Source: a virus (lineage: Duplodnaviria; Heunggongvirae; Uroviricota; Caudoviricetes). From it: a stretch of 64,000 nucleotides of DNA. Positions 8,632 to 50,364 of the stretch are shown piece after piece. The translations under genes and the position numbers were made by a program. Below the pieces are notes generated by a model. The model searched no databases, had not been told where the DNA came from, and saw nothing but the letters and a program-made list of their open reading frames with translations. The stretch lies in the IMG/VR virus record IMGVR_UViG_3300049783_001441, one strand, 5' to 3'. Position 1 is the stretch's first letter. Each line of letters starts with the position of its first letter.

Positions 8632-9630
8632 TTACTTCGTGAGCATCATCGGAGCTTGCGGGCCGAACTTGCTACGGGCACCCGGATCAGACGAGGAGAC
8701 GGTCCGGTCTGGGAAGAGTGTAACGCGGATAACGACGCCAGGCTGGACAGCGTTGGCAACGGCGGGGAGGGCGTTCGTGCCGTCATCAATCGAGTCGAAC
8801 CCGGTGACGTTGGCCAGAACCGAGCCGCTGGTTGCCTTGCGGAAGAACGGAATGCGCAGGGTCAAGTATGCGCGGGTCTCTGGGGCCTTGACACTGTCGT
8901 CATGCAGCACAACGAGTGCTCCACGGTCGAGCTTGCGGGGCTTCAGGCCGGACGGGCTCTGGAGGCTTGCACCACCGGAGGTCTTGGCAGCGGCAGCGCC
9001 ATCAGAATCGCCAGCGTGGGCGCGGAAGATTCCTGGGAAGCATGAAACCAGGGCGCAATGCGTCGGGGAGTCTGCAACCGTGCGGCCACCGATCAGGTAA
9101 TCCTGCTCAAGCGTGCCCTTTTGGATGCTGTTAACGTCGGTGAGCAAGAGCGCTCCGTCGTCGTTGGAGTAAGCATCAACGGCCATGTGCGAGGCAAGGT
9201 ACTCTGCGGTCCAGGCTTCGCCGCCGGCAGGGAGGTTGTTGCGTGAAGTAGCAACGCCGCCATGGCCGGTTTCATTGTGGATGGACCCGAAAGTCCCGCC
9301 GTAGATATTGGTCTCGTCCAAGCCGCGAGCCGGTGCAGTCACGCCGCTGGTGTAGCGGTGGTAGCGGAACAAGGGGATGGCGATGAACTTTTCGGTGGCG
9401 TCCCACGAGATCGTGCCGGCGGGGTAACCGTTAGCAGTTTCCATGGCAGCCAACACGACGGCAGACGACAAGTCGCCACGCGGAATGATGATGCTGTCGT
9501 AAATCGGGTCATCGAGGCCAACGCGAGCGATGAAATCGCTGAAAATGTCGCCCTTGTTGAACTGGCCCATCTTGCAGCCGGCTGCGGCCACCGATGCGAT
9601 AGGGGATGAGAGGCGAGTGTTGTCGTTCAT
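8632..9630 (-). CDS. virion structural protein, paralogue B (333 aa from the ATG at 9630)
   Basis: paralogue of 895-1896; start MNDNTRLSSPIASVAAAGC with GGAG RBS; the track ORF extends to 9678. Confidence 0.55.
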   Translation of the reverse strand: MNDNTRLSSPIASVAAAGCKMGQFNKGDIFSDFIARVGLDDPIYDSIIIPRGDLSSAVVLAAMETANGYPAGTISWDATEKFIAIPLFRYHRYTSGVTAPARGLDETNIYGGTFGSIHNETGHGGVATSRNNLPAGGEAWTAEYLASHMAVDAYSNDDGALLLTDVNSIQKGTLEQDYLIGGRTVADSPTHCALVSCFPGIFRAHAGDSDGAAAAKTSGGASLQSPSGLKPRKLDRGALVVLHDDSVKAPETRAYLTLRIPFFRKATSGSVLANVTGFDSIDDGTNALPAVANAVQPGVVIRVTLFPDRTVSSSDPGARSKFGPQAPMMLTK

Positions 9631-9649
9631 GGGGAACTCCGACCGCGCT

Positions 9650-10114
9650 TTACGCGGGTATAATAGTGGAAATTTCAAGATGAGAGAGGTTGTCTGGGCG
9701 GGTCTGCCCTAAAATGACTTCCGCAAAGAGTACCGGCCAACGCGGCGGCTTTACGGTGAAAGACGCATGTTCACGACTTACCAACTGTGCTGGTATGACT
9801 ACGCCTAAATGGGAGTGCGTTGCGTCGGCGAAAAACCGAACGGACAGCGCTCCCGGTGCGGCCCACTGTACGTCCAGCTTAGCTGCCGGCACCAGTGAGA
9901 ACACCATGCGAAAACCCAAGCCCCAGCTAAGGGGGTCGGCCCACAACAGGCCGCAATGGTTGCGGGCTAATTCCTTAGCCCTGGCCGCCTCTGGTTGGAG
10001 CACCCCATCGGCCACCACTGTAAATATCGGCCCTGGCTTATCCAGTGTGCCCGCCGCAAACCCCGTTCCAGGGGTTGACAGCAGCAGTAGCCTATTTTTC
10101 AGCGGTTCAGCCAT
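9650..10114 (-). CDS. hypothetical protein (154 aa)
   Basis: ORF in the operon upstream of paralogue B; no motif recognised. Confidence 0.45.
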   Translation of the reverse strand: MAEPLKNRLLLLSTPGTGFAAGTLDKPGPIFTVVADGVLQPEAARAKELARNHCGLLWADPLSWGLGFRMVFSLVPAAKLDVQWAAPGALSVRFFADATHSHLGVVIPAQLVSREHASFTVKPPRWPVLFAEVILGQTRPDNLSHLEISTIIPA

Positions 10115-10655: not shown

Positions 10656-11486
10656 TTACTCGGCAGATTTGCCAAGCGCCTTTAAGGGTGCGGTAACTCC
10701 GGCTAGCGCGCCTTTCAGCTCACTCCCGAAGTAAAACAACACCGCAAGAAACACTACAATTAGGACCACGGCGTAGTACGCCCCGGCTGATTGTATGAAG
10801 ACTTTGAAGATGTTTTTTGACCACTCGCTGAAGCCTCCCTTGGCTTCAATCGCGGTATCTTTTAACGCGGCCAGTGCCCTAGGCACCGTAGTAATCGCCA
10901 CCTCCAGCCCACCGTTTAGGGCTCGCGAGGCAGTTTCATACCAGCCCGAATCTAGCGGCTCTAGCTCGCCGTCCATAATCTCATTCGCCAGCCTAAAGGC
11001 CACCTGGGAGCCGAGGTTGCCAGCCACTCGCGCGGCTCCTCGGATGGTATCTTCGATGTCGCCGGTGCCGTTTGCACGGGGTATCGCGGGCAGGCCAGCC
11101 AGCCCCAGAATGTGGAGTGCGCTGAACTGCTCCCAACCGTAGGTAGCTTCCAGCCGGCCCAGCTTGCGGGCGGACGCGACCTTGAACTGGTCGTTACCGG
11201 TGTCGGCGTAGCCAACGGCGTAGATATACGCGGCGCGGACGTGCGCGCCAAAGTTGGTGCGTGGACGCATCATTACGCGGGCGGTAACATTGGACGGGGT
11301 GCCGTCTGGCACCAGGCTAACGAGCGCCGCCATGCTGGGGTTAGACGAGCCGGCGAGGCGAGTGTCCGAGCAGCCACAACCACCGGAGCTAGCCGCTACA
11401 GAGGCGATGGACGAGGCGAGGTGGGAGTCTTCGCAGGCCGAGCATTTCCCCTTATTCGTATTCCCGCAACCGGATAACTCACTCAT
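10656..11486 (-). CDS. Cys-rich protein with C-terminal transmembrane anchor
   Basis: N-terminus CGNTNKGKCSACEDSH...SSIASVAASSGGCGC shares the IASVAA..GC motif with both virion-protein paralogues; C-terminal helix AYYAVVLIVVFLAVLFYFG. Confidence 0.5.
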   Translation of the reverse strand: MSELSGCGNTNKGKCSACEDSHLASSIASVAASSGGCGCSDTRLAGSSNPSMAALVSLVPDGTPSNVTARVMMRPRTNFGAHVRAAYIYAVGYADTGNDQFKVASARKLGRLEATYGWEQFSALHILGLAGLPAIPRANGTGDIEDTIRGAARVAGNLGSQVAFRLANEIMDGELEPLDSGWYETASRALNGGLEVAITTVPRALAALKDTAIEAKGGFSEWSKNIFKVFIQSAGAYYAVVLIVVFLAVLFYFGSELKGALAGVTAPLKALGKSAE

Positions 11487-11865
11487 AGGTAACCTCTGTG
11501 AGACTTGCGCCCCTGCTGCTAGTCCACTTTAACACTGCTAGTAACCCGAAGGCCACCGCAATGCAGGCCAAAGTCCACACCCACCACGGGGTAGCTTTAA
11601 CTTTTTCGATTCCGGCCTCTGCTCGGTCCAGGCTGTCCACCCAAAAACCGCCCTCTTCCGAGCTTAGCGGATCCGAGCCCCAGTCCGAGTCTGTCGAATC
11701 TGACGGCACTAGGTCCGTGCTCTCTTCGCCAGACTGCGGGCTGGGGTCGGTGTAGCCGTTAGACGGGTCGTCCAAAGCGTCCTGCTTACTAGATAGCTGG
11801 TTTTTTAGCCGGTTTGCTAACCCGGCGGCGCGACCTGCTTGGAACTCTGGGAAGGGCTTACCCAC
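11479..11865 (-). CDS. tail-anchored membrane protein (acidic N-terminal domain)
   Basis: C-terminal helix WWVWTLACIAVAFGLLAVL. Confidence 0.45.
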   Translation of the reverse strand: MGKPFPEFQAGRAAGLANRLKNQLSSKQDALDDPSNGYTDPSPQSGEESTDLVPSDSTDSDWGSDPLSSEEGGFWVDSLDRAEAGIEKVKATPWWVWTLACIAVAFGLLAVLKWTSSRGASLTEVTYE

Positions 11866-11868
11866 GAG

Positions 11869-12390
11869 TTACCTCCGCCCGACGAGAACGAGCATTAACA
11901 CCACGAACAGGGCTGCGAGCGCCGCGGCTCCCAGCCCCACCCACTTCCAAGGGCTCTCTGTCTCCACCAAGTAATTCGCGGCGTCTTTCAGGATCGCCCC
12001 GGCAGACTTTGACTCTGCCGGTGGGGGTGTGTCCACACCGGGCGCGTCGTCGGGTTGGTGCGAAGCGTATTCGCGGAGCATGGCTAGCTCCACGATCTGC
12101 CAGTCAACCATGCGAGCATGGGCGTAGCGGTCGTTCGCCGTGGCCGTTGCCGGCGGGCTAACCTTAATCAAGGTCTGCTCGATGCGGCGGTCAGCTTCGG
12201 CGATAAACGCGCGCAAGCCTTTACTGTCCACTGGCGGGCTCTGGATGGCCGTGAACCAGTTAACCCCGCTAGCTTTGAGCCAGCTTAGGCGAGCGCCTAG
12301 CTGGGTGTAGGAACCGTCCTCGTAGGGGTAGTCTACGCCTTGAACGCCGGTGGGGTTGCTCGTGTGGCTATCGGTGGCATTATGCGGCAT
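11869..12390 (-). CDS. tail-anchored membrane protein
   Basis: C-terminal helix VGLGAAALAALFVVLMLVLVG. Confidence 0.45.
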   Translation of the reverse strand: MPHNATDSHTSNPTGVQGVDYPYEDGSYTQLGARLSWLKASGVNWFTAIQSPPVDSKGLRAFIAEADRRIEQTLIKVSPPATATANDRYAHARMVDWQIVELAMLREYASHQPDDAPGVDTPPPAESKSAGAILKDAANYLVETESPWKWVGLGAAALAALFVVLMLVLVGRR

Positions 12391-13333
12391 TGGACTTGCC
12401 TCCGAGTGTCTTCGCGAGGAGCACCACGAGCACGAGTGCGGCCACGAGAATCAGAGCCCCCGCCGCGTATGCAAAGTAGTTGGGCTTGTCGTCGGTCAAC
12501 CCGAACTCGCCGCCGGCATCGAGTTCGCCGTTGTTACCGGGCTCGTCAGGGCGGTCCATTCTGCGGCCGTCTTCGCGGTCCATTTTGGTGCTGTTACCTT
12601 CGCTGCGATCTTCGAGGGTGTCAGCGCCGGGTACGCCACGGGTCTTGATGCCCTCGGGGTGCTTGATGCGCTGCATGGCCGTAGAGTTTAGCACCTGCAA
12701 CCGCGCCGCTTCACCGTGGCCCGTGGTGATCACGCCACGCGTGCGGTAGGCCGCCACTGGGATCACGCCGCCGGTTAGTCCCGGCATCGGGACATCGGCC
12801 CAACTCTCTTTGAATGGGGTCAGCATGAAGCCCGCGCCGTACTTGCGGAGTAGCTGCCCTAGCTCGCGGTAACCTGCCCGCCACGCCTCTACTTCGGGCA
12901 GCGTGCGTGCAGCGGCACGGCGAGCCCTACCGGTCAGGGGATCAGCCGGGTTGGCCGATGGCCCGCTAGGGTTGAGCAATCGGCGCACCTTTTCAGGCAT
13001 CCGGCCCGGCCTGGCAACGACGTGTTTGATTACCTGCTTCCAAGTCTGGCCCAGAAACGGCTTAATCAGAGCTTGCAGGCGGATAGAGTCGCGGCCTACT
13101 TCGGCTGTCAGGTTCGCCATGCGCAGATAATAGTACGGGCGCATACCCGTAGACAGCCACAGGTTTTTGTGCGCTTGCTTTTTGGTGAGTACCGCCCGAA
13201 CGACCTCTTGCTGTGCGGCCTTTAGGAAGGCTTCGCGGTCGCTAGTACCCCACGATGGCCACAACTGGGCCGCGTCTAGCGCTAGTGTGGGTAAGTCTCG
13301 GGAAAGCCCCGCCGAAATGTCCGTGTGGCTCAT
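12380..13333 (-). CDS. tail-anchored membrane protein (317 aa)
   Basis: C-terminal helix FAYAAGALILVAALVLVVLLA. Confidence 0.5.
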   Translation of the reverse strand: MSHTDISAGLSRDLPTLALDAAQLWPSWGTSDREAFLKAAQQEVVRAVLTKKQAHKNLWLSTGMRPYYYLRMANLTAEVGRDSIRLQALIKPFLGQTWKQVIKHVVARPGRMPEKVRRLLNPSGPSANPADPLTGRARRAAARTLPEVEAWRAGYRELGQLLRKYGAGFMLTPFKESWADVPMPGLTGGVIPVAAYRTRGVITTGHGEAARLQVLNSTAMQRIKHPEGIKTRGVPGADTLEDRSEGNSTKMDREDGRRMDRPDEPGNNGELDAGGEFGLTDDKPNYFAYAAGALILVAALVLVVLLAKTLGGKSNAA

Positions 13334-13659
13334 GGCGAACCCCTTCGCGGTAACATGGCAATGATGAGCACAACAAGTGCCAGGATAACCACCACGACAA
13401 CCGATAGGCCGGCATAGTTCGTTGGGTTTAGCTGGCTAAGGGCCAGCTCTAAGTGTTGCTCCACGCGGAGCAACATCGCATACGTTTCGGCATCGCCAGC
13501 TCGGCGGGCACGCAACTTTTGCCGCTGCACCTCGGCGAGCTTGGCCGGGATACTGGCGCTGGTCTGTAGGTACGCGGATACGCCGGGGGCTAACGCCGCC
13601 AGGGTATCCGAGTCCAAACGCCCGACAATGTCGAGCGCAGCGCCAGTAACGTCAGCCAT
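13330..13659 (-). CDS. tail-anchored membrane protein
   Basis: C-terminal helix LSVVVVVILALVVLIIAML. Confidence 0.45.
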   Translation of the reverse strand: MADVTGAALDIVGRLDSDTLAALAPGVSAYLQTSASIPAKLAEVQRQKLRARRAGDAETYAMLLRVEQHLELALSQLNPTNYAGLSVVVVVILALVVLIIAMLPRRGSP

Positions 13660-13662
13660 GGC

Positions 13663-14106
13663 CTAGCCGCGAGCCTTGCTGATGCCGAGCGCAATGAGCA
13701 CACCCAACAGCACAAACACCACGAGACCAATCACGCGCCCTGGGGTTACCAGGGGTGCGGGAGGGGTGACTAGGGGGTTGTTACTGGTGGTGTCGTCAAG
13801 TTCGTCAAACACGTCCTCGCCAGCCGAACCCTTACCTTGAGCGGCGCGGATAAGTTCAGCGGCGGTCGGTCCGAGTGCGTCCACGAGGTCCGCAGCGAGA
13901 CGAGCAGCTTCCGCTGGGCTGATGCCGGAATCACCGGAGCCGCCGCCGGAATCTGGGGTGTCGCCACCGGTCTTTCTGCCGTTTTCGAGTGGGGCCTTAC
14001 CCGCGAGGCGAGCTTCGCTAAGCTGTGGTTGGCCGCCATCTTCTTCGAGCAACAGACGTTCGTATTCGGCCTCGTCGGGCCAGTCTTCTAGGGGTGGCAT
14101 AGGCAA
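13663..14106 (-). CDS. tail-anchored membrane protein
   Basis: C-terminal helix VIGLVVFVLLGVLIALGI. Confidence 0.45.
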   Translation of the reverse strand: MPMPPLEDWPDEAEYERLLLEEDGGQPQLSEARLAGKAPLENGRKTGGDTPDSGGGSGDSGISPAEAARLAADLVDALGPTAAELIRAAQGKGSAGEDVFDELDDTTSNNPLVTPPAPLVTPGRVIGLVVFVLLGVLIALGISKARG

Positions 14107-14124
14107 CTCCTCGGGCTTTACCCG

Positions 14125-14904
14125 TTAGGTTTGAGTCATTGTAACTGGTTTCCCGCCAAAATAGGCGGCAACAGCTAGTAGTAGCATGGCGGCAACGAGA
14201 AAAAACAAGTTACCACCTTTGGGTGCCCGACCGGCTCCGGCCAGCCACCCGTGGTTTCGGGCCGACGAGGTTACCACCCGGCTGGAGGTAGACCCGAAGG
14301 GCTCCCAGTCGGCGGTAGCGTCGGCTTCGCGGAATTGAATACTGCACGACACGTTACCTCGCGCGTCGGCGGCGCACTCTGGAGGCGTGCCGATGTCCAC
14401 AAAAATGTGGGTCGGGCTACCCGGCATATTTACCCCGCTGTCCGAGGTCCAGCGCTGCCCGTTGGGGTGGAACCCTGCGAGCATGAAGCGGTACGGAAGG
14501 CCGATAGAAGCCGCCGCAGCCGCCAGGAATACCGAGAAGTCGTCACAGTCCCCAAGCTGGTGCTCTATGGTGTCTAGCGGGTGCTGGATGTACTCTCCCG
14601 CCTCCAACACGTAGTAAAGGTTCTCCACGGCCCACTGGTGGATGGCACGGGCTTGGTTCACGTAGTCTCTGGGTGCTACTCTGGCCTTGCGGAGAATGCG
14701 GGTAACCACGAACACGCGCAACTCGTTGGCCTCCGCGGCCTCGTCGGAAACTTTGCGCAGACTGCCCAGCCGCTCGGACCACGACATTCGGTCCCACGAA
14801 GAGCGGGAGACTTGCGGGCCACGAATCGTGGGTACCGAAATCTTACGGGGCTTGCGCGGGCGACCTAGGCGGGTCTCGTCCATCACGGGTAAGGGGATCA
14901 GCAT
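14125..14904 (-). CDS. transglutaminase-like cysteine protease, C-terminally membrane-anchored
   Basis: Cys box GDCDDFSVFLAAAAASIGLPYRFMLAGF (cf. G.C.DFA.....L.RA.GIPAR.V.GY), His SPTHIFVDIG, then Asp; C-terminal helix LFFLVAAMLLLAVAAYFG. Confidence 0.6.
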   Translation of the reverse strand: MLIPLPVMDETRLGRPRKPRKISVPTIRGPQVSRSSWDRMSWSERLGSLRKVSDEAAEANELRVFVVTRILRKARVAPRDYVNQARAIHQWAVENLYYVLEAGEYIQHPLDTIEHQLGDCDDFSVFLAAAAASIGLPYRFMLAGFHPNGQRWTSDSGVNMPGSPTHIFVDIGTPPECAADARGNVSCSIQFREADATADWEPFGSTSSRVVTSSARNHGWLAGAGRAPKGGNLFFLVAAMLLLAVAAYFGGKPVTMTQT

Positions 14905-14907
14905 TGG

Positions 14908-15660
14908 TTACTCCGGGGCCGCTGCGAGGCGCAACGCCGTGTAGATGGCCACGATCAAAAGCACGACCATGAGGGCGGCCTTGCCGCCTACCCTTAACCG
15001 TTTGGCGTTGGCGAGGGACAGCATCGGTCGGCCCCCGGCAGCGCTGCTGCCTTTGTCGTGCGCCAGGGAGCCCGCAGCGGCAATCGCAGCGGCCTCGGTG
15101 GCGTTGTTCACCTCTGACGACTCGCGCGCCGCCCACGCCCCTAGAAACGACGTGTAAGCCGCTGTGCGGATACGGATGTGCGCGGCATTCCAGGCGTGCC
15201 GTTCGATGCGCCGCCCGAACAGTAACGCCAGATCCAGCACGCTCATATCCGACTCGCCTGCTGTCTTGACCGTGTCAGCCCAGCGGCCCGCGTCTAGCTC
15301 TTGCTCGATGAGGGCGCGGACGTTGGTTACCGGGTCAAGCCTCGGGTCTGCCGGGTGCGCGTATGCGCGACCTTCGCGGAATACCGGACCCGGCGGGTTC
15401 AGTATGCTGCCCGCGCCGTCTGGCACCTTCAGTTGGTGCAGCCCAACACTGAACTCCCGTGTACGCCCGTCTGGCCACTTCGTGTACGCAACAGCGTCGT
15501 TACGAAGGCGGCTTTCGGCCCACGCATTCGCCGCCGCAGCTAGGGTAAGTGCCGGAGTCGTGCCGTACTGGCCGTAAACCCGGATGAGCGTGGCTAGGTT
15601 CTGCCGCTGCTCTGCATTCAGGCTGGCAGCGGGTGTGAAGGCGGCTAGGGGTAGGCTCAC
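14908..15660 (-). CDS. tail-anchored membrane protein
   Basis: probable GTG start at 15658-15660 overlapping the upstream stop (GTGA); the track ORF extends to 15846, which is an implausible 190-nt overlap; C-terminal helix ALMVVLLIVAIYTALRLA. Confidence 0.45.
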   Translation of the reverse strand: MSLPLAAFTPAASLNAEQRQNLATLIRVYGQYGTTPALTLAAAANAWAESRLRNDAVAYTKWPDGRTREFSVGLHQLKVPDGAGSILNPPGPVFREGRAYAHPADPRLDPVTNVRALIEQELDAGRWADTVKTAGESDMSVLDLALLFGRRIERHAWNAAHIRIRTAAYTSFLGAWAARESSEVNNATEAAAIAAAGSLAHDKGSSAAGGRPMLSLANAKRLRVGGKAALMVVLLIVAIYTALRLAAAPE

Positions 15661-16286
15661 TTGGACCCCCGGAACTTGGACCACGCGAACACCGCTGCGA
15701 TTGTGACCAGCAGCACCAAGCCGAACGCTACGGAGCCTTTGGCTGCGACCTTGGCTGCGTCTCGCACGGGTTGGACGTAACTCGCGGCCTTGTCGGCAAC
15801 CCCGCTGATCCACGGCACAATGCCCTCGGACTTTGAGGGGTACCACGGTACCAAAGGTCCGCTCGCAGGCTGGTACTGGAACCGGCGGTTGTTGCCGGAA
15901 GCGCGGTGACTAACGTGGACGTGCCCGCCCTTGCTCGCGTGGTACAGGATTACCTGACCTACCGGAATATCCGGGTTCAGGTACAGGTACTCCATAAGGT
16001 CGCGCGACGTGCCTTCCACCGGCTTGACATCCGCAGCTTCGCCCTTGATGTGCTGGGAGTTATTGTTGCTCCCCACGCACGCACTGTTGTTGATTACGGC
16101 AGTTCGGAAGCCGCTTATGCGCTGTAGCCCGCCGAACTGCACCCACAACGGGTCCAGCACGTTGATAGCCAGCGCCATGAGCGCCGCCCTCTGGGTGGGG
16201 CTAGGCGTGTTGGGGTTACCCGCAGCGGCGGCGCAACCACTACGGGTAAGCGCCTCTTCGGACAGATACAGGCTAAGCATGGCCAC
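15657..16286 (-). CDS. LAS-family (peptidase M15-like) zinc metallopeptidase, C-terminally membrane-anchored
   Basis: SQHIKGEAADV matches S-x-H-x-x-G-x-A-x-D; second metal motif GGHVHVSH; C-terminal helix VAFGLVLLVTIAAVFAW. Confidence 0.65.
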   Translation of the reverse strand: MAMLSLYLSEEALTRSGCAAAAGNPNTPSPTQRAALMALAINVLDPLWVQFGGLQRISGFRTAVINNSACVGSNNNSQHIKGEAADVKPVEGTSRDLMEYLYLNPDIPVGQVILYHASKGGHVHVSHRASGNNRRFQYQPASGPLVPWYPSKSEGIVPWISGVADKAASYVQPVRDAAKVAAKGSVAFGLVLLVTIAAVFAWSKFRGSK

Positions 16287-16289
16287 GGG

Positions 16290-16892
16290 TTACCTCAACT
16301 TCGCGTAGGCGCGGGGTACGGTCATTGCGAGCAAGGCAAGGCTGATACTGACCAGCGCAATCAGCAGGTACAGACCCAACATACTCACCCGGCGTTGGTT
16401 GCGCTGTCCGGCTGTAATGCGGGTCTCGCGGGCTTTCTCGACCAACAGAGCGCCTTCGCGGGTAATGTCGCCCTGGAGGATAGCGGTTGCAGCCGCCTCC
16501 TTTTCGCGAGCGCCACCACCGTTTTTGGTGCGCATCTTCTCGATAGACTGCGCCAATTCTGCGGGGGTATCGTCAGAGTACTTGGCGTACACGCGGCGGT
16601 ACCGCTTGCTGAAGCCTTGCTCTTCCAGTTGGTTACGGATCAGCACCTTGGTCGGGTCCGTGTTGGCGGCCCCGGCTCCGATAGCACTACCTACGATCGA
16701 GACAACCGCGCCCGCAGCCGCCAAGGCGACATTGATCGGGGGTAACGGCAGCATTACGCCGATCGTGGTTAGTGCTGAACCCACCGCAACCGTGCCGCCG
16801 CCTATCGCCGTCTGCGCTGCGATACCTTTCTCTACCCGCTCAACTTCCGTTGGCGTTGGCGTGTGGAGTACGGGTGGCTGGGACGGCAGCAC
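16290..16892 (-). CDS. tail-anchored membrane protein
   Basis: hydrophobic ALAAAGAVVSIVGSAIGAGAA plus C-terminal helix LGLYLLIALVSISLALLAM. Confidence 0.45.
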   Translation of the reverse strand: MLPSQPPVLHTPTPTEVERVEKGIAAQTAIGGGTVAVGSALTTIGVMLPLPPINVALAAAGAVVSIVGSAIGAGAANTDPTKVLIRNQLEEQGFSKRYRRVYAKYSDDTPAELAQSIEKMRTKNGGGAREKEAAATAILQGDITREGALLVEKARETRITAGQRNQRRVSMLGLYLLIALVSISLALLAMTVPRAYAKLR

Positions 16893-17308
16893 TACGCCAC
16901 CTCAAGCGCCGCGTCCGGCCCCGGAGCCGGGAACAGCGCGACCAGCACGACTAGCGCAATGAGGGCGAAGATAGCGGCAACTCCGCCGATCCATGCCCAC
17001 TTGTTTTCGCCACGGAAAACGTCTAGGTAACTGGGTGGGTTCAGCAGCGCGTTTTCGGCGTCTTCGTTCGCTTGTAGCGCCAACTCTAGGTCCACGGCGG
17101 CTTGATCGAGGTCGCCTTCGTCGTTGGCGCAATCGTCGAGACGCCCTTCCCACTTGGCGTACCACGCGCTTAGCTTCTTATTGCGGTACGACTTCTTACC
17201 GTCCGCTTTGGCAGCCATGTAACCATCATACAGCCGTTGGGCCTTGGCGCACGAGGTCTTTTCAGGCGTGGCCGCTAGGCGGCTCGGGCTGGGTTTAGAT
17301 GGTCGCAT
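16892..17308 (-). CDS. tail-anchored membrane protein
   Basis: C-terminal helix WIGGVAAIFALIALVVLVALF. Confidence 0.45.
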   Translation of the reverse strand: MRPSKPSPSRLAATPEKTSCAKAQRLYDGYMAAKADGKKSYRNKKLSAWYAKWEGRLDDCANDEGDLDQAAVDLELALQANEDAENALLNPPSYLDVFRGENKWAWIGGVAAIFALIALVVLVALFPAPGPDAALEVA

Positions 17309-17411: not shown

Positions 17412-18629
17412 CTAGAAGTCGAGGTCAGCGACCGTAATCTGCGAGGTCTTGGTGGTCTTGCGGGGCTTGCGGGCCTTCGGCTTGGTGGTCTTTGCCTTCG
17501 GGGCGGCCTTTGCCTTTGCCTTTGCCTTTGCCTTTGCCTTCGGGGCGGCCTTTGCCTTCGGGGCGGCCTTCGGTGCGGCCTTTGCCTTGGCGCGGGCGGC
17601 GTCACGGGCAGCGTTGAGCTTCAGCCACTTGGCGGCTACTGGCTTGATCTTCGCGGCTTCGGCAGTGCTGGGCTTGTGCAGTTGCGACTGGCTGGAGACA
17701 GCCTTGACGCGGCCTTGCAGGCTTGCAGTAGCGCGGACAGTGAGCTTGCCCTTGCTAGCGCCGCTCGTGCCGCGGCCCACGTAGAAGCCAGTTACCCAAC
17801 CGGCACCAGTCTCGTAGCGCACGGGCTGGCCTAGCGACGGGACTGCGGTGAGCGCCTTACCGGAATCGGTGGCGGCGGTCTTCTTTGCGGCGGGAGCTTT
17901 GCGCTTCGCGGTAGCTTTGCGCGTAGCCGGAGCGGCGGTCTTCTTAGCGGCAGTCTTCTTTTTGGCCGGAGCTTTGCGCTTTGCCGGAGCGGTCTTCTTT
18001 GCAGCGGTCTTCTTTGCCTTGGTATCGCGCTCGCTAGTCGAGCCCGGCCCGCTGCGTGGGCGTCCGCCTGCCGGTGCCTTGGCGGTCTTGCGCTTCGCCG
18101 CGGGAGCTTTGCTCGTCGGAACCAGCTTCATGCCGCGGATAGCGGCGAGCGAGCGCAGCTCTGCGAGGGAGAGTTCCTTGCAGTTGGCCGCGGCAGCAGC
18201 GGTAACCGGAGCACCGAGTGCGAGCGACCATGACGAACCGCTCTTGTTGGCCTTGCTGCCGGCGAACTTGTAGTTCGCGAGGCAACGGGCCTGGGTGGCT
18301 GCGCCGGTAGCCTTGACGGCGATCTCGGCGACGTTACCCTTGCGGATAGACACTTTCACCGGGATGCTGGACAGCTTGCTGCCGGCACCGAGGCGGAGCT
18401 TAGCGGTGTACCAGACGGTAGCGCGCTTGGCGTTACCCTTGGTTTCCTTGCGGCGGTTGTTGATTGCGGCCTGAATCTTGGCGGACTCGGCAGCGGCGGG
18501 TGGGTAGCGTTTAAGCAGTGCTTTGGTAGCAACGATCATGGGAGGAACCTCCGTCCAAACGGACATAGTGTGCGGGGCTCCAAACAAAGCACCCGGAGAC
18601 AGGGTAACCCCTGGTCCGGGTAACGGCAA
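17412..18629 (-). CDS. Lys/Ala/Pro-rich histone-H1-like basic DNA-binding protein
   Basis: 405 aa; long KAKAAPKAAPKAKAAPKAKAKAKAK and KKTAAKKTAPAKRKAPAKKK tracts encoded by GCCTTT-type simple repeats (about 17500-17600). Confidence 0.55.
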   Translation of the reverse strand: MPLPGPGVTLSPGALFGAPHTMSVWTEVPPMIVATKALLKRYPPAAAESAKIQAAINNRRKETKGNAKRATVWYTAKLRLGAGSKLSSIPVKVSIRKGNVAEIAVKATGAATQARCLANYKFAGSKANKSGSSWSLALGAPVTAAAAANCKELSLAELRSLAAIRGMKLVPTSKAPAAKRKTAKAPAGGRPRSGPGSTSERDTKAKKTAAKKTAPAKRKAPAKKKTAAKKTAAPATRKATAKRKAPAAKKTAATDSGKALTAVPSLGQPVRYETGAGWVTGFYVGRGTSGASKGKLTVRATASLQGRVKAVSSQSQLHKPSTAEAAKIKPVAAKWLKLNAARDAARAKAKAAPKAAPKAKAAPKAKAKAKAKAKAAPKAKTTKPKARKPRKTTKTSQITVADLDF

Positions 18630-44668: not shown

Positions 44669-45055
44669 ATGAGTGCTTGTCTAGTCACACGGGTTGAGGA
44701 CATCAACGGCTACGATTTTCTGGTGGAGATTCACCCTTGGGCCAAGCGCCAGATGCGCTTCGCACTGTTCAACGCGAAGCGCATGGGCCAGCCAGGGCGG
44801 GACATTCAGATCACAGGCCGTGTTGTGTCGACATACCGCGTGGACGTGGAGCACGACGGGCGGGCTTCCGCCATTCCGCTAGGGCAGTTGATGGTCCTCG
44901 ACGAGTCTTGGTACACCCCAGAGGACCAGGGGCTAGAGCTTGAGGTAACGGTGTACCGTAACGGGGGCTCCCGCCTTTCCGGCACCGGTTACACGGCGTC
45001 CGGTGGGCGTTTTGCATTCGACTTCTCGCCGTTCGTGCGGGTTTCGAGCGAGTAA
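44669..45055 (+). CDS. hypothetical protein, tandem paralogue 1
   Basis: shares (V/L)VTRV.D...D.Y(L/I)VE(I/V)...A.RQ.R.A... and a C-terminal ..GTGYT(A/P)(S/N)G..(A/G)F...PFVRV with 45110-45514. Confidence 0.45.
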   Translation: MSACLVTRVEDINGYDFLVEIHPWAKRQMRFALFNAKRMGQPGRDIQITGRVVSTYRVDVEHDGRASAIPLGQLMVLDESWYTPEDQGLELEVTVYRNGGSRLSGTGYTASGGRFAFDFSPFVRVSSE

Positions 45056-45109: not shown

Positions 45110-45514
45110 ATGGAGTTTCACATGGGTAAAGTGCTAGTCACGCGAGTAATGGACAGCTTCGATGACGACTACATCGTAGAGGTCAGTAAGAACGCCCGCC
45201 GCCAGATTCGGGCTGCGCGGGAACATGCTGCGGGTGGGGAGAGCGTGGAGGTCGGCATTAGTGCGCGGCTTCTGCGGGTTTACGACATCGGACGGTACAC
45301 AGACGAGGCGTCCAGAATCCCCGTGGGTTGGTTAGCCAAGAAGCCCGGTAAGTGGTTTTCGCCAGCCGCAGAGGCGCAACTGCTCGTTATCGAGGTCTCC
45401 GAGGACGGGGGCACCACGATCACGGGCACCGGCAACACCCCGAACGGCGCCCTATGGGGTTTCTACGGCGAGCCGTTTGTGCGGGTGGGTGCCCAACGCC
45501 TGCGCGTTATCTAG
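45110..45514 (+). CDS. hypothetical protein, tandem paralogue 2
   Basis: see 44669-45055. Confidence 0.45.
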   Translation: MEFHMGKVLVTRVMDSFDDDYIVEVSKNARRQIRAAREHAAGGESVEVGISARLLRVYDIGRYTDEASRIPVGWLAKKPGKWFSPAAEAQLLVIEVSEDGGTTITGTGNTPNGALWGFYGEPFVRVGAQRLRVI

Positions 45515-45652: not shown

Positions 45653-46141
45653 ATGCAAGAGCTAGTACCCACATGGGCGCAGGAAATCCGCTGGGGTAAG
45701 ATCTTCGACGAAGAGACGCTAACCGACGCGCTCGCCGAGCTGGTAGACGACGGCTACAAGCCAGACGACGCGGTCGCGCTCCTCCTCCGCGAAGTAGCCG
45801 AGAACGCCACGGAGGAGGTGGCCACCCAACTGGCTAAGCTGCTCAATCAGATCCACACGCCGGGGCCAGCGGGCACAGTGTTGCGCCTCGTCGGTACACC
45901 GCTCATCCTCGCCTTGGAGGAGTGGGCAGTTAACGCGATTCGCGGCCTCAAGCCGAGCCCCGAACGCCGACTCAAGCGAATCCGTAAGCGCGCCGACCGG
46001 GCCGCTGGTTACGCCCCAGCAGAGGCCGCCGCAATCCGCTTCTTCGCGGAGGTTCACCAGGGCGATATGGTAGCTTTGGGGCACCTTGCCGTGCTCTCCA
46101 GCTTCAGCCGCAACGAGAAAAAGGCCGCGCGAAACGCGTAA
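45653..46141 (+). CDS. hypothetical protein
   Basis: 162 aa; stop embedded in the CGCGTAAC repeat cluster. Confidence 0.45.
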   Translation: MQELVPTWAQEIRWGKIFDEETLTDALAELVDDGYKPDDAVALLLREVAENATEEVATQLAKLLNQIHTPGPAGTVLRLVGTPLILALEEWAVNAIRGLKPSPERRLKRIRKRADRAAGYAPAEAAAIRFFAEVHQGDMVALGHLAVLSSFSRNEKKAARNA

Positions 46142-46161
46142 CGCGTAACGCACCGCGTAAC
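46135..46161. repeat. three CGCGTAAC 8-mers in 27 bp (46135-46142, 46142-46149, 46154-46161)
   Basis: read directly; related GCGTAAC/GCGTAAGC motifs at 45520-45556 and the palindrome at 52835-52848. Confidence 0.45.
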
Positions 46162-46193: not shown

Positions 46194-46655
46194 ATGGACC
46201 CGATAGTAGACCTAGACTCTGACCTTTCCGCTGACTCGGACAGCGTAGCTGACGCCAACAACCACCTGACGGACCTAGTCGGCATTCTGGACGGTGCGCA
46301 GGACGCAAACCCCGAGTTCACCGGAACTAGCCTAGCTGCGCAGTACGGACTAACCATGCTGCTAGTTATCGTGATTACGCAAGCCGCCCGCCGTTACTCC
46401 AAGTTCCTGAACTTCGACAAGGGCACCATCCCGGTGCTCGCTGGCGTGATCTCCACGCTGCTCGTCGTGGTCGGAAGCGCGGTCGGAAGCGCGGTGTATG
46501 GCATGGATTACTCTTGTCTGCAAGTCTTGCAGTTCGGCACGTCCGCCGCCATGGCCTCGGTGCTTAGTTACTACGGCGTGGACCGCTCTTGGAAGGTGTT
46601 CCGCCTAGCCGTTGCTTTCCGCGCCGCTAAGCGCGCCTCCGCAGACTCCCAGTAA
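46194..46655 (+). CDS. holin-like membrane protein
   Basis: ATG 46194 with GGAGGT RBS (the track start 46164 is a TTG); 2-3 hydrophobic helices (LTMLLVIVITQAA, IPVLAGVISTLLVVVGSAVGSAVYG, LQFGTSAAMASVLSYYG); immediately upstream of the muramidase. Confidence 0.4.
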   Translation: MDPIVDLDSDLSADSDSVADANNHLTDLVGILDGAQDANPEFTGTSLAAQYGLTMLLVIVITQAARRYSKFLNFDKGTIPVLAGVISTLLVVVGSAVGSAVYGMDYSCLQVLQFGTSAAMASVLSYYGVDRSWKVFRLAVAFRAAKRASADSQ

Positions 46656-46691
46656 TGCGATGTTACGACCCCGAAAACGAGGACAACTAAT

Positions 46692-47480
46692 ATGCCCACC
46701 GTCAAGCTGACCGCCGCCCTGGCTAGACTAGCCCCTTACGCCGCCATGCTGGGCGTTGACCCGGCCACGCTGCACACAGTGGTCCAAGTGGAGTCTGGTA
46801 ACATCCCGTGGGTTATCGATGGCTACCCGCTGACCCGCCTGGAGTTACACCACGTCTGGTCCCGGTCCCCGGTGGCCCACCAACCGCTGCTCGATGACTT
46901 CATTCGGGTGGACGGCAAGGTCCACTACCTGCCGAGGGGCAAGGCACGCACGGGCCGCTACAAAAACGGACCCTGGCAAGGGCACCGCTACTGTCTGCGG
47001 ACGCATGAAGTCCCTGGAGGTTACCCGATTCTACGCGAGGCTACGCACCTAGACGGTGACTGGTCCTGGGTGTCTCTACACGACGTGAAGTGGTCAACTG
47101 CACAGCACGACCTCCAGATACACTGCATGGAGCGGCTGGTGTCCATTGCCCACATGCAAGACGACCACGAGGTTGCGCGGAAAGCGGAAGCCGCCGTGTG
47201 GGAATCAGCTAGCTACGGTGGACTGCAAGTCATGGGTTTCAACTTCCGTGATGGCGACCATGCGAGCGCCGCCGATATGTTCGGCGACTACGAGACAGAG
47301 CCAGGGCAGCTAATTAGTTTCGTCCAGCGGGTACTATCCAAACCCCACGAATTGAGTGCCCTCCGAAGGGGTAACTTCCTCACCTTCGCGGCGTCTTACA
47401 ACGGGCCCGGACAGCCCGAGGTGTACGCCGCGCGCATGACCCGGTTACTCCGAGAAACGCGCCGCGAGCTGCGGGGTTAG
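46692..47480 (+). CDS. endolysin, DUF3380-type N-acetylmuramidase-like
   Basis: AAMLGVDPATLHTVVQVESGNIPWVIDGYPLTRLELHHVWSRS matches the I.AV.EVES.G.GF...GRP.ILFERH.F.R.T signature of the phage muramidase family. Confidence 0.5.
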   Translation: MPTVKLTAALARLAPYAAMLGVDPATLHTVVQVESGNIPWVIDGYPLTRLELHHVWSRSPVAHQPLLDDFIRVDGKVHYLPRGKARTGRYKNGPWQGHRYCLRTHEVPGGYPILREATHLDGDWSWVSLHDVKWSTAQHDLQIHCMERLVSIAHMQDDHEVARKAEAAVWESASYGGLQVMGFNFRDGDHASAADMFGDYETEPGQLISFVQRVLSKPHELSALRRGNFLTFAASYNGPGQPEVYAARMTRLLRETRRELRG

Positions 47481-47599
47481 CGGGTCTAGTGGACTTGCGT
47501 GGTGTAACGGTTTAATAATGGTGTATCGAGCCGCCTCCGGGCGGTCAGACTCACAGCGGTTCAGGCTATCGCCAAGACCCCCACACTGGAATACCACCC

Positions 47600-48073
47600 A
47601 TGACCGCACCCATTGCACTAGCCGAGTCTGCCGCCGCCGCAGAATCAGCGCCACCACCCCGACAACAGCACAAACAGCCAGCCAAGGGTTTCAACGGGGA
47701 CAGCACAGAAACGGCATTAATAGCCATGTTAGACCGCCACGGGGAACGGACAGTAGCGGCAACCGCTAAAGGCATGAGCGCCATTGCCGAGGAGTTACGA
47801 GACCTTCGCACAGCGGTAGACGGGGTAAGAGAGGACAACACCCGCACCATGAATCGAATGCTGATGCTGGTCGGTGCGGTGGCGCTTGTAGCCATTGTTA
47901 TGATGGCCGGGCTTGTTCGAGCTACTTACCTCACCGCGGGTCTGGACGGCATCAAGGCCGGCAGCGGCAGTCCGTACAGCCACAACGACGGCCCGGCGGA
48001 CGCAGTCAATCTGGATGAGGACACCAGCAACCACGGCGGGGGTTCCATGGCCACGCCTCGGCCTAGGCGGTAA
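47600..48073 (+). CDS. membrane protein with single internal TM helix (lysis accessory?)
   Basis: MLMLVGAVALVAIVMMAGLV helix; downstream of the endolysin. Confidence 0.4.
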   Translation: MTAPIALAESAAAAESAPPPRQQHKQPAKGFNGDSTETALIAMLDRHGERTVAATAKGMSAIAEELRDLRTAVDGVREDNTRTMNRMLMLVGAVALVAIVMMAGLVRATYLTAGLDGIKAGSGSPYSHNDGPADAVNLDEDTSNHGGGSMATPRPRR

Positions 48074-48077
48074 GCAG

Positions 48078-48101
48078 GCGAATGGGCGAATGGGCGAATG
48101 G
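48078..48101. repeat. (GCGAATGG)x3 tandem repeat
   Basis: read directly, immediately after the stop of 47600-48073. Confidence 0.5.
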
Positions 48102-48163
48102 CGAGGCGCGGCGGTGTAGGTTAGCTTTAACCCAACCCGCGCACCCCAGTCTAGGAGCCCTTA

Positions 48164-49042
48164 ATGAGCGTCGTCATACACCACAACGGTTACAGAGCAG
48201 AAGACCTTTACACCTGGCTTTCTAGCACAGGTAAAGCCTACGGGGCGGCGGGTCCGGGGCGGCTAGAAGTCGGCTCCGTGGACGCCGTTCTGACCGAAAT
48301 AGCCCGCGAGAACGGCTGGTATGTCGAGGCCGCCCCGGCGCGACTGCTGGCTATGCTCCCGGCGGGCCAGTTGTGGGGGCCGCTCGCAGCGCTCAACTAC
48401 CGAACCGGACTAACCGGTAGGTTGGAGCAGGTAACGACCTTCGAGTTTGGCCATTGCGTGCAGGTGGACCTTGTGGACGACGCCGGCGACGTGGTTGTGA
48501 GCGAAGTGTCGAGTTACTGGCCCGCGCCAAGTGCGCAGGCCACGAGCGTTGGCCCGTCCTGCCGCCTGCTAGTCATCGAATGGCTGGACACTGCGGGGAA
48601 CGTCTGCGCCACGAAGTACCGGTTCAAGCCTTACGTTACGCTGGCCGCCCCGATTAGCAAGCAAGCTGGCGAGACGTGGTCCACGTATGCGGCCCGCTTT
48701 GCCGCTGCCGCTGCTGTACCAGGTGCGCTGGCCGCCGCCGGCCCGAGCATTGCCGCCGGTCGTCGCCGCCGCCAGAACGTCATCGACGAGCTGTCTGCCG
48801 TTATCGGCGGCGTGCTGCTGGCCGCAGACCCCAACACCGACCCGTCAATCGGCGGCACAGCGTTCCTGTCCTCGCTCGCGGGCGCTGACTCTGCTTTCCT
48901 GCACAGCGGCTCCACAGCGCTGGCTACTGCCGTCACCGCCTCGTCTCCCAGCACGTTCCCGTGGTTGGCTGTAGAGTTAGCTCCGGGGCTTACGGTGCAG
49001 GTGTACTTACTCTCGAAGCTGGCCCCTTGGACAGCGGCCTAA
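48164..49042 (+). CDS. hypothetical protein (292 aa, Ala-rich C-terminus)
   Basis: stop overlaps the patatin start (TAATG). Confidence 0.45.
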   Translation: MSVVIHHNGYRAEDLYTWLSSTGKAYGAAGPGRLEVGSVDAVLTEIARENGWYVEAAPARLLAMLPAGQLWGPLAALNYRTGLTGRLEQVTTFEFGHCVQVDLVDDAGDVVVSEVSSYWPAPSAQATSVGPSCRLLVIEWLDTAGNVCATKYRFKPYVTLAAPISKQAGETWSTYAARFAAAAAVPGALAAAGPSIAAGRRRRQNVIDELSAVIGGVLLAADPNTDPSIGGTAFLSSLAGADSAFLHSGSTALATAVTASSPSTFPWLAVELAPGLTVQVYLLSKLAPWTAA

Positions 49043-49908
49043 TGGCCGCTATGCGGCGGGACCAGACGTGGGTGGTCGCCAGTGGTGGCGGCGCTCGCGG
49101 GCGGTGCGAGCCGCCGCAGATCCAAGGTGCTATCGACGAAACCCTAGCGGCCACGGGGCTTTTCCCTGCTGGCTTTGTGGGTAACAGCATCGGAGCCACA
49201 ACGGCCCGGTTCGCCGCGGCTAACGCCATGGAGGAGCTAGACCAGTTCAGCCGGGAAACAATCCGCGAGCGCGACGTGCAAAGGGTGAACGACCCGAACC
49301 CGCTGGACGGGTGGAAGAGCCTGAATATCTTCATGCGCCGGCTGCGCCCGTACTTGGAAGCGCACCCGTGCACCGCCCAGTGCTGGGTGCTTGTTACCGA
49401 CCGGAACTTGTGGGCACCCGGATCCGGTGAGCCCGAGGACTTACCCGGTGCGAAGCTGGTGCGCATTGACCGGTTAAGCGTAGCGGCGCAGCTCAAGTGG
49501 ATCGGGCGTAGCAGCGCTATATTACCCTTCCATGAGCCCGTGGAGGGTTGGCGATACATGGACGGTGGCGCGGTTGCCGTCTACCCGCCGTTACCCCGGC
49601 TCGCGCGAAAGGCTTGCGCCCGGTTGTACGCGGTTGGTGCAAGCCCGTACAAGCTGGCAGACCGCGCGTTTGGTCGCTGGGAGCGGGGTAGTGTGGGCGT
49701 GCTGAACCAACTGTCGGAGGTCCACGTAGGTAACATCCTCCGCAGGGACGTTGCGAGACTTACCCGGTACGCGGAAGCCATGGACGTGTGGATTTCCGCC
49801 CCGGATAACCTCGCAGACGTTGGTGACACCTTCGAGTTTGGCGCCGAGATTGACAGCAAGCGCATAGCTGCCGGGCACCGCGCGTGGGCTAACCGGGTGA
49901 AGCTGTAG
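49042..49908 (+). CDS. patatin-like phospholipase
   Basis: oxyanion GGGARG, nucleophile elbow GNSIG (G-x-S-x-G), DGG dyad motif YMDGGAV; start MAAMRRDQTWVVASGGG at 49042. Confidence 0.7.
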   Translation: MAAMRRDQTWVVASGGGARGRCEPPQIQGAIDETLAATGLFPAGFVGNSIGATTARFAAANAMEELDQFSRETIRERDVQRVNDPNPLDGWKSLNIFMRRLRPYLEAHPCTAQCWVLVTDRNLWAPGSGEPEDLPGAKLVRIDRLSVAAQLKWIGRSSAILPFHEPVEGWRYMDGGAVAVYPPLPRLARKACARLYAVGASPYKLADRAFGRWERGSVGVLNQLSEVHVGNILRRDVARLTRYAEAMDVWISAPDNLADVGDTFEFGAEIDSKRIAAGHRAWANRVKL

Positions 49909-49989: not shown

Positions 49990-50313
49990 ATGGACATCAA
50001 AGCAGGTATCGAGTCGCGGGCACTAGGCGAGGTTGTACGGGCCGTCAGGGCGCACACCAAGGTTAACCAGAAAGACCTCGCGGATAGGTTGGGCTGGAAA
50101 ACGTCGTCGTTGTCGGCCATCGAGAACGGGCGCAACGCGGTAGACGCGGCAGTCGTGGGGCAACTTTGCACCGTGCTGAAATTCGAAAAGGGCAAACTTG
50201 CGCAGGCCGTGGTCGCCACGATCAACACGCTACGCGCGAAGGAAGGCACCGCAAAGCGCCATGAACTCTACATGGTCCACGAGGCGAACCTACTGGCGGG
50301 TGGAGCCGAGTAA
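49990..50313 (+). CDS. XRE-family helix-turn-helix transcriptional regulator
   Basis: VNQKDLADRLGWKTSSLSAIENGRN HTH. Confidence 0.7.
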   Translation: MDIKAGIESRALGEVVRAVRAHTKVNQKDLADRLGWKTSSLSAIENGRNAVDAAVVGQLCTVLKFEKGKLAQAVVATINTLRAKEGTAKRHELYMVHEANLLAGGAE

Positions 50314-50331
50314 GCCGAGTAAGCCGAGTAA
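50305..50331. repeat. (GCCGAGTAA)x3 tandem 9-mer giving three consecutive in-frame TAA stops for the XRE gene
   Basis: read directly. Confidence 0.6.
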
Positions 50332-50364
50332 ACTGTAGCCTGGGGCGTTTCGCGCTCCGGGTTT

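Follow-up and report, generated by a model that had tools for sequence, protein, structure and literature searches.

A rare phage patatin-like phospholipase and its dedicated partner protein, encoded beside lysis genes, as a possible accessory of host lysis

We analyzed a 64,000-nucleotide (nt) stretch of DNA, here called the window, from a virus record in IMG/VR (IMGVR_UViG_3300049783_001441; Caudoviricetes), and in it a group of five genes that ends with a predicted patatin-like phospholipase. The five open reading frames (ORFs) are co-oriented on the + strand. They encode, in order, a holin-like membrane protein of 153 amino acids (aa) (46194..46655), recognized by hydropathy and position; a 262-aa soluble N-acetylmuramidase of the PF11860 (DUF3380) type (46692..47480), a likely endolysin with matches in Pfam, PHROG and the Protein Data Bank (PDB); a 157-aa protein with a single transmembrane helix by hydropathy (47600..48073); a 292-aa protein that we call the partner (48164..49042), homologues of which are encoded directly 5' of related patatins; and the patatin-like protein itself (49042..49908), 288 aa with a Ser49/Asp174 dyad, recognized by motifs, profile and predicted fold. 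The gaps are 36 nt between the holin-like and muramidase genes, 120 nt between the muramidase and 157-aa genes, and 91 nt between the 157-aa and 292-aa genes. The last two genes, together ~1.75 kb, overlap: the stop codon of the partner gene and the start codon of the patatin gene share one base (TAATG). A first-pass annotation of the sequence had described this gene order and this overlap, and both were confirmed. On an identical public contig (L004), an independent gene caller gave the same 153-, 262-, 157-, 292- and 288-aa genes, along with a 107-aa helix-turn-helix (HTH) gene. In addition, the cassette ORFs have the third-position GC bias (GC3 signature) of this ~63% GC genome.

The last gene encodes, judging from profile and predicted structure, a genuine but divergent and rare patatin with an intact Ser-Asp dyad and predicted acyl-hydrolase activity. 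The motifs G15-G16-G17-A-R19-G20 (GGGARG), G47-N-S49-I-G51 (GNSIG) and D174-G175-G176 (DGG) are intact, as the first-pass annotation had noted, and are conserved across the clade of related proteins. S49, D174 and the glycine loop are invariant in alignments of 21 and 84 sequences. In the smaller alignment G15, G16, G47, S49 and D174-G175-G176 do not vary; in the larger one G15 and G16 are invariant and G20 is nearly so. Taken alone, the sequence scores 20.6 bits in Pfam, below the curated gathering cut-off of 27.7, but a profile of the clade matches PF01734 proteins and PlpD, and the protein is therefore a divergent member of the patatin family. Family membership rests on profile and structure. 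The clade profile retrieved 1220 proteins. Among the 120 best listed, all those with a precomputed Pfam domain carry PF01734, and the copy from the window is the only one with no Pfam domain on record. Against solved structures, the clade profile matched PlpD (2.1e-15) and also VipD, CapV and ExoU.

The predicted fold agrees with this assignment. An AlphaFold (AF2) model made from the 84-sequence alignment had a predicted local distance difference test score (pLDDT) of 95.5 and a predicted template modeling score (pTM) of 0.93; a two-sequence alignment had given a pLDDT of 35, and the 84 sequences were used instead. In a Foldseek search with the model, PlpD was the best match (1.9e-11; TM 0.62/0.70), and CapV, CapE and potato patatin were also found, all with probability 1.00. 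Among viral models, most matches were to patatins of giant viruses, ascoviruses and nudiviruses; a couple were to proteins of tailed phages that have not been cultured. Thus the first-pass proposal of a patatin fold, in place of an alpha/beta-hydrolase or cutinase fold, fits the model, and there was no alpha/beta-hydrolase match in Pfam. The first-pass annotation had also suggested a check for secretion signals. Neither the patatin nor the partner has a signal peptide; in the model of the patatin, strand beta-1 begins at residue 8.

Relatives of this patatin are few. Of 1.84 billion cluster representatives searched exhaustively with a hidden Markov model (HMM), only 20 matched at E <= 1e-3, and in 5.8 billion proteins the patatin has only one other cluster. 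A tblastn search with the patatin found no relative among 50,697 phage genomes on deposit, nor among 72,556 plasmids, and the cassette DNA had no similarity match among deposited phages. The enzyme is probably catalytically intact and under selection, because the serine, the aspartate and the glycine loop are invariant in its relatives and because 69% identity has been held between genomes of 63% and 45% GC.

We found that the partner is linked to the patatin outside the window. In 5.8 billion proteins the partner falls in only two clusters, and relatives of the partner and of the patatin are on the same foreign contigs (L001, L002 and L006). There the partner is 61% and the patatin 69% identical to the proteins of the window, and the genes again overlap by one base. 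Homologues of the partner are encoded directly 5' of clade patatins in L001 (61% identity), L009 (E 1e-5) and L010 (E 0.003 to the protein of the window). The L009 and L010 partners match one another (E 3e-6), and the partner in L017 matches that in L009 (E 2e-5). The junction between the two genes is a 1-nt overlap in the window and L001, a 4-nt overlap in L010, a 10-nt overlap in L017 and a 62-nt gap in L009. In all, at least five lineages, with 42–70% GC, carry the pair, and in four of them its genes overlap. In the partners, the C-terminal half is conserved and includes an AG-x-RRR-x-NV motif, whereas the N-terminal halves vary. A gene at the partner position in L007 shares these motifs and their order, but the match was not significant (hhalign E 0.048).

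The partner has no relative in Pfam, PHROG, PADLOC or the PDB. The first-pass annotation had suggested a profile search with the 48164-49042 product as a route to a partner function; the partner profile against the PDB gave a match to 26fb_T, 'Structural protein', that was not significant (E 1.2).

From these comparisons, it is the 292-aa protein and the patatin together that form the conserved unit, and not the five-gene cassette. The first-pass annotation had treated all five genes as one unit, but the pair recurs without a holin or muramidase gene in its closest relatives, those of the L001 type. Apart from the pair, none of the ~89 proteins of the window matched the 20 kb around the pair in L001. 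In both the window (63%) and the L001 genome (45%) the GC content of the pair matches that of the resident genome. A search of 185,579 genomes of bacteria and archaea (one per species) did not detect the pair, and scans of genome, metagenome and further viral contig collections gave no new loci. We infer that the pair is a conserved, translationally coupled two-protein module and that the partner represents a new protein family.

In the window, the pair shares its strand and its block with genes expected to function in lysis. The holin-like protein has two strongly hydrophobic helices by hydropathy (residues 47-65 and 79-97) and a third, weaker one by eye, with an acidic N-terminus and a basic C-terminus, and a GGAGG ribosome-binding site lies 5 nt ahead of its ATG. 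A small protein with two to three transmembrane helices, encoded 36 nt before a peptidoglycan hydrolase gene, is the arrangement of a canonical lysis cassette. The holin-like protein had no match in Pfam, PHROG or PADLOC.

The muramidase matched PF11860 (E 9.4e-19), with the match confined to the C-terminal half of the model, and the PHROG 'endolysin' family (2.6e-24). It also matched the solved phage endolysins 7rum and 7q4s (~1e-10) and 5nm7. Both halves aligned, including the N-terminal catalytic 'VQVES' segment, and the aligned segments are ~60 residues further apart than in 7rum. The protein probably carries an internal insertion and is likely the endolysin. By hydropathy it has no transmembrane or signal-arrest-release segment. 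All of its relatives in deposited phages (282/282) are from phages of Gram-negative hosts. The first-pass annotation had proposed a host with mycolic acids or an outer membrane. The relatives of the muramidase agree with the second, and the host of this phage is probably Gram-negative; nothing indicated a mycolata host. The window has no transfer RNA (tRNA) genes, and no prophage copy was found in the 185,579 genomes.

Phage lysis is described as having three steps; the last, the breach of the outer layer, is known to be carried out by spanins, by a cationic peptide (disruptin), or by LysB esterases in phages of mycolata. We looked for a spanin. All ORFs of 35-220 aa were scanned for a lipobox, and none in or near the cassette had one; nor was there an N-terminally anchored i-spanin there. 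The 157-aa protein does have one transmembrane helix, as the first-pass annotation had it, but the helix is near the C-terminus (residues 88-106 of 157), so that the protein is C-terminally anchored. It is not spanin-like, with this topology and no embedded or adjoining lipobox ORF, and it had no family match in Pfam, PHROG or PADLOC.

We compared the neighborhoods of clade patatins in other contigs. In all loci examined the patatin gene is co-oriented with its immediate neighbors. Clade patatins are found beside three unrelated peptidoglycan hydrolases in three lineages: the PF11860 muramidase of the window, and those of L013 and L007. In L013 a Peptidase_M15_3 gene (2.4e-13) starts 4 nt 3' of the patatin gene and is followed by a 37-aa single-transmembrane ORF. 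In L007 an endolysin-like protein (PHROG 33083, 1e-6) is encoded 3' of the patatin. Recurrence beside unrelated hydrolases is the pattern expected if the function of these patatins is linked to lysis. Elsewhere, the neighbors of the patatin in L011 are methyltransferase-like. The flanks of the patatin in L016 resembled a transmembrane protein (5') and the start of an amidase (3'), but neither had a Pfam or PDB match and they were not counted as evidence. In L001, L009 and L010, most of the genes around the pair had no match in Pfam or PHROG.

We tentatively favor the notion that the pair is a late-acting, partner-controlled phospholipase that would complete envelope disruption at lysis, and we put the chance that this is correct at somewhat below even. 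The partner and the patatin would be made in the cytoplasm alongside the holin-like protein and the soluble muramidase. The partner would bind the lipase through its conserved C-terminal half and would restrain or target it. Restraint may be needed because a phospholipase left free in the cytoplasm would collapse the membrane prematurely. The holes that canonical holins form are very large and non-specific, and endolysins that lack a signal escape through them. When the holin triggers, such holes would let both the muramidase and the lipase into the envelope, and the 32-kDa cytoplasmic lipase would reach the periplasmic face at the same moment as the endolysin. The absence of a signal peptide on the lipase and the partner fits release by this route, as for LysB. 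The Ser49/Asp174 dyad would then deacylate phospholipids of the cytoplasmic membrane and of the inner leaflet of the outer membrane. This would be the final envelope step that is done elsewhere by spanins, disruptin or LysB. For the production and restraint of the lipase this scheme draws on the anatomy of the cassette, and for its release and action on known holin biology and patatin chemistry.

LysB is a functional parallel. LysB, of phages D29 and Ms6 for example, is the lipolytic third lysis enzyme of mycobacteriophages; it lacks a signal and is encoded with the endolysin and holin, and its presumed target, once the holin has fired, is the outer lipid layer. The first-pass annotation had seen the position and logic of LysB in this cassette. 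As far as the window goes this holds: a lipolytic enzyme lacking a signal is encoded in the same orientation as a holin-like protein and a muramidase. The likeness is in function only. LysB has a cutinase-like alpha/beta-hydrolase fold and a Ser-Asp-His triad and cleaves mycolyl-arabinogalactan esters, whereas the protein described here is a patatin with a Ser-Asp dyad. It also has a dedicated partner gene and a host that is probably Gram-negative, and the module is not confined to lysis cassettes but also travels without lysis genes. The distance to the endolysin gene varies. In the window the patatin and endolysin genes share a strand and a block and lie two genes and two gaps apart; the patatin gene adjoins a peptidoglycan hydrolase gene in L013 and L007, and there is none near it in L001 and L009.

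Spanins fuse membranes, and the disruptin of phiKT is a cationic peptide; neither is an enzyme. The pair is in the slot that these proteins occupy, that is, the last gene or genes of a holin-endolysin cassette, and no spanin was detectable in the window. We know of no Gram-negative phage for which a route by enzymatic lipid hydrolysis has been shown. Other patatins share some features with the pair. The patatin toxin ExoU is encoded next to a specific partner that controls it, SpcU, which serves as a chaperone in type III secretion. Sequence and structure searches with the patatin both had ExoU among their matches, and in both systems a patatin is encoded beside a dedicated partner. In contrast to SpcU, the 292-aa partner resembles nothing solved, and no secretion system is involved. 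The small bacterial patatins of the PlpD/RssA type have the same motifs and a compact domain of ~250-290 aa, and PlpD was the best match in both sequence and structure. PlpD, however, is the passenger domain of a type Vd autotransporter, and the protein of the window stands alone, is phage-borne, is ~20% identical to PlpD and is coupled to a partner ORF.

A patatin has been linked to lysis before. In phage WO of Wolbachia, a patatin, a small protein that resembles a holin, and an ankyrin protein are encoded next to, and upstream of, the tail module, with no endolysin, and a role in lysis was proposed without experiments (PMC9203015). Here too a phage patatin is encoded in the same region as a small holin-like protein. 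The window differs in having a muramidase, no ankyrin domain, no recognizable tail module and a clade-specific 292-aa partner. No sequence relationship to WO was detected by tblastn against the 50,697 phage records, among which the presence of WO was not established.

Several observations weigh against a role in lysis. In L001, L002 and L006 the pair and two unrelated genes are between split DNA polymerase III genes, with no peptidoglycan hydrolase gene within 10 kb on either side. In L007, L009 and L010 the pair is directly 3' of tail-fiber or LamG genes, and the genes downstream in L009 include one for an exonuclease-like protein and then an integrase. The patatin in L008, a more distant phage relative, is encoded between capsid and head-tail adaptor genes. 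Even in the window, the 120-nt and 91-nt gaps and another gene separate the muramidase gene from the pair. Some clade members are on contigs of 70-73% GC with actinophage-type minor tail genes, the hosts of which may lack an outer lipid layer. Furthermore, the label 'holin' is based on topology and position and lacks family support, failure to detect a spanin is weak evidence, and the WO precedent is itself a proposal made without experiments.

The neighborhoods in L007, L009 and L010 raise the possibility that the pair is an accessory of the tail-fiber module. In this case the partner would anchor the lipase to the tail or fiber, or to an envelope structure that the fiber recognizes, and the lipase would act at entry, breaking down envelope lipids locally, or would modify the receptor. 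Proximity to lysis genes would be incidental, both being late. In L007 the position of the pair is preceded by a 582-aa minor tail protein (PHROG 14 and 5413). In L010 it is preceded by a LamG fragment (BLAST 4.7e-15 to the L009 Laminin_G_3 protein). In L009 the pair ends a fiber-like array and is followed by a holin-like 174-aa protein, the exonuclease-like protein and the integrase. In L015, a fiber-like repeat protein was seen by eye 3' of the patatin. A variable N-terminal half joined to a conserved C-terminal half would suit an adaptor, and the non-significant match of the partner was to a structural protein. Nonetheless, there is no tail-fiber or LamG gene near the pair in the window, where none of ~89 proteins resembles the fiber genes of the other loci. 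Nor did we recognize a virion gene in the whole 64 kb: Pfam and PHROG searches with ~78 ORFs of at least 90 aa (69, and nine in and around the cassette) found no terminase, portal, capsid or tail gene. The 319-aa protein encoded near the pair in L001 appeared fiber-like, but this could not be confirmed. In addition, tail-fiber and lysis genes are commonly adjacent in layouts of this kind, as in L007, and position does not discriminate between the two roles. We consider a tail-fiber role unlikely.

It is also conceivable that the pair is a mobile two-gene moron of the toxin type, which would exclude superinfecting phages, abort infection or damage the host. In such a module the patatin would be the effector that destroys membranes, and the partner would act as sensor or inhibitor. 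The pair alone is common to genomes that are otherwise unrelated, and its arrangement in L001 is what one might expect of a moron. The island in L001 (7754-10864) has four genes in opposite orientation among replication genes and interrupts split DNA polymerase III alpha genes (PHP, DNA_pol3_alpha and HHH_6 are on separate ORFs); rIIA/rIIB, RecA and primase genes are near the pair. The two genes 5' of the pair (139 and 319 aa) are unrelated to those for the holin-like protein, the muramidase or the 157-aa protein. Upstream of the island is an extended -10-like element (TGCTATACT), and the patatin gene is followed by a strong hairpin and a T-run. L001 lacks the T4 late-promoter motif (TATAAATA). 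The position in L009, between tail genes and an integrase, is typical of morons, and Burkholderia prophages have been reported to carry patatin morons (PMC2920897).

Patatins are also common effectors in the cyclic-oligonucleotide-based antiphage signaling system (CBASS), and the CBASS patatins CapV and CapE are among the structural matches. They have the same fold and are membrane-degrading effectors in phage-related conflict. These effectors need a CD-NTase and a cyclic-nucleotide signal, and their solved chains are ~300-345 aa long, compared to 288 aa here. As the first-pass annotation had stated for the adjacent genes, there is no cyclase or sensor, and this now extends to the whole window by PADLOC and Pfam. 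PADLOC, run on ten cassette proteins, gave generic HTH matches only, and we rejected an assignment to CBASS or other defense systems. Pfam identified 17 families among 69 further proteins of the window, none of them of a defense type, and no cyclase, NLR, TIR, SAVED or similar domain was found in the window. Nor did a cyclase-type domain adjoin the patatin in any locus examined (precomputed Pfam listings or Pfam scans).

Directly after the pair in the window, and counting toward a moron, is a gene for a 107-aa Xre-type HTH protein (49990..50313, +; Pfam HTH_31 1.6e-11). It is the last gene of the co-oriented block, and its matches in PADLOC were generic HTH matches, including a weak one to capH (0.0019). 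No Xre-type HTH gene was found 3' of the patatin in L001, L007, L009 or L013. Other findings argue against a moron. No PADLOC model matches the partner or the patatin. The pair was not detected in the 185,579 species genomes and 72,556 plasmids searched, where defense modules usually also occur, and it is co-oriented with late-type genes. The match in GC content to the resident genome and the high protein conservation point to a long-standing function and not to arms-race turnover. Overall, we think that a moron is less likely again than a tail-fiber accessory.

A further alternative is that the patatin serves the virus itself, by processing host lipids for an internal or assembly-associated membrane. 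One reason to consider this is an array of nine consecutive genes elsewhere in the window (10656-17308, -), each encoding a protein (276, 128, 173, 317, 109, 259, 209, 200 and 138 aa) with a single transmembrane helix at the extreme C-terminus. The array is unusual and may specify a virus-associated membrane or an envelope-spanning machine. Within it are a Peptidase_M15-type motif (SQHIKGEAADV; 15657-16286) and a transglutaminase-core motif (GDCDDFS; 14125-14904), and Pfam found one Peptidase_M15_3 and one Transglut_core among the proteins of the window. Giant viruses, ascoviruses and nudiviruses contain membranes, and most viral structural neighbors of the patatin are from these groups. The lack of recognizable tailed-phage virion genes in the 64 kb would also fit. 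In contrast, the pair or the clade is found in ordinary tailed phages, as judged by minor tail proteins in L007, an HK97 capsid and sheath in L008, and rIIA/rIIB in L001. No hallmark of membrane viruses (double jelly-roll capsid or A32-type ATPase) was identified, and the window is part of a contig of up to ~99 kb. A role in viral lipid remodeling therefore seems very improbable.

Other features were found around the cassette. Directly 5' of the holin-like gene is an ORF of 162 aa (45653..46141, +). In a search of a small BLAST database made locally, it was weakly similar to the genes that lie directly 3' of the patatin gene in L010 (E 0.004) and in L009 (E 0.067). It had no match to a Pfam or PHROG family and may, tentatively, be a third gene linked to the pair. 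Just upstream of the lysis block are two tandem paralogues on the + strand (44669-45055 and 45110-45514; 128 and 134 aa; 34% identity, E 8.7e-13), also with no Pfam or PHROG match. Short tandem repeats lie directly after stop codons at three places: CGCGTAAC is repeated at ~46134-46160, GGCGAAT is present three times at 48078-48100, and GAGTAAGCC is repeated at 50306-50330. A related 10-mer showed no genome-wide enrichment. The only sigma-70-like site of the region is in the 120-nt gap 5' of the 157-aa gene. The + strand block is closed by a terminator-like hairpin (50337..50363, +) of 12 pairs followed by a T-run; terminator-like sites overall were not enriched compared to shuffled sequences. 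We dropped the intergenic motif GCGAGTAAGC as a candidate element, as its six matches in the window are what would be expected (5.8) with no enrichment.

The families recognized in the window include DNA pol A, integrase, HU, AAA_5, SPFH/Band_7, GNAT and DUF7736. The family A DNA polymerase is present as two overlapping ORFs (2210-3670 and 3667-5058, +) that cover PHROG 17 positions 633-831 and 850-1209, and it gave only weak matches, to Microbacterium phages. A gene for a protein with a tyrosine-recombinase (integrase) domain (5058-5870, +) overlaps the second polymerase ORF by 1 nt. Two paralogues of 333 and 348 aa, ~48% identical (895-1896 and 8632-9678, -), flank the polymerase and integrase region. 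The 333-aa paralogue has a lipobox-like N-terminus and no match in deposited phages. A 405-aa Lys/Ala-rich protein (17412-18629, -) has AKKTAAKK and AKAKAKAK repeats, is histone H1-like and possibly condenses DNA. The contig that encodes the partner protein is up to 98.8 kb long. The element is phage-like and is unclassifiable from 64 kb.

That a patatin can be encoded near phage lysis genes is not a new idea, given the proposal for the WO cassette (PMC9203015) and the patatin morons of Burkholderia prophages (PMC2920897). What is new here is that the patatin has a partner family that is dedicated and conserved, that it is found together with a full holin-muramidase pair, that clade patatins recur next to three hydrolases unrelated to each other, and that the clade is rare and has a wide compositional spread. 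A broader picture would be that a hitherto unrecognized, widely dispersed two-component phage phospholipase replaces spanins enzymatically in a Gram-negative host and works in very different hosts (clade genomes have 42-73% GC). In the window it would do so in a large, otherwise unclassifiable virus-like element with an array of C-terminally anchored membrane proteins that may handle lipids. We regard this picture, taken as a whole, as more doubtful than a role in lysis alone.

If the pair does act in lysis, then a patatin and its dedicated partner would be a fourth route for breaching the outer layer, and the partner would be a new protein family that controls a membrane-destroying lipase. 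It would also give an experimental footing to the hypothesis put forward for phage WO. If the pair is instead a tail-associated or toxin module, it would still be a rare and strongly conserved phage lipase system.

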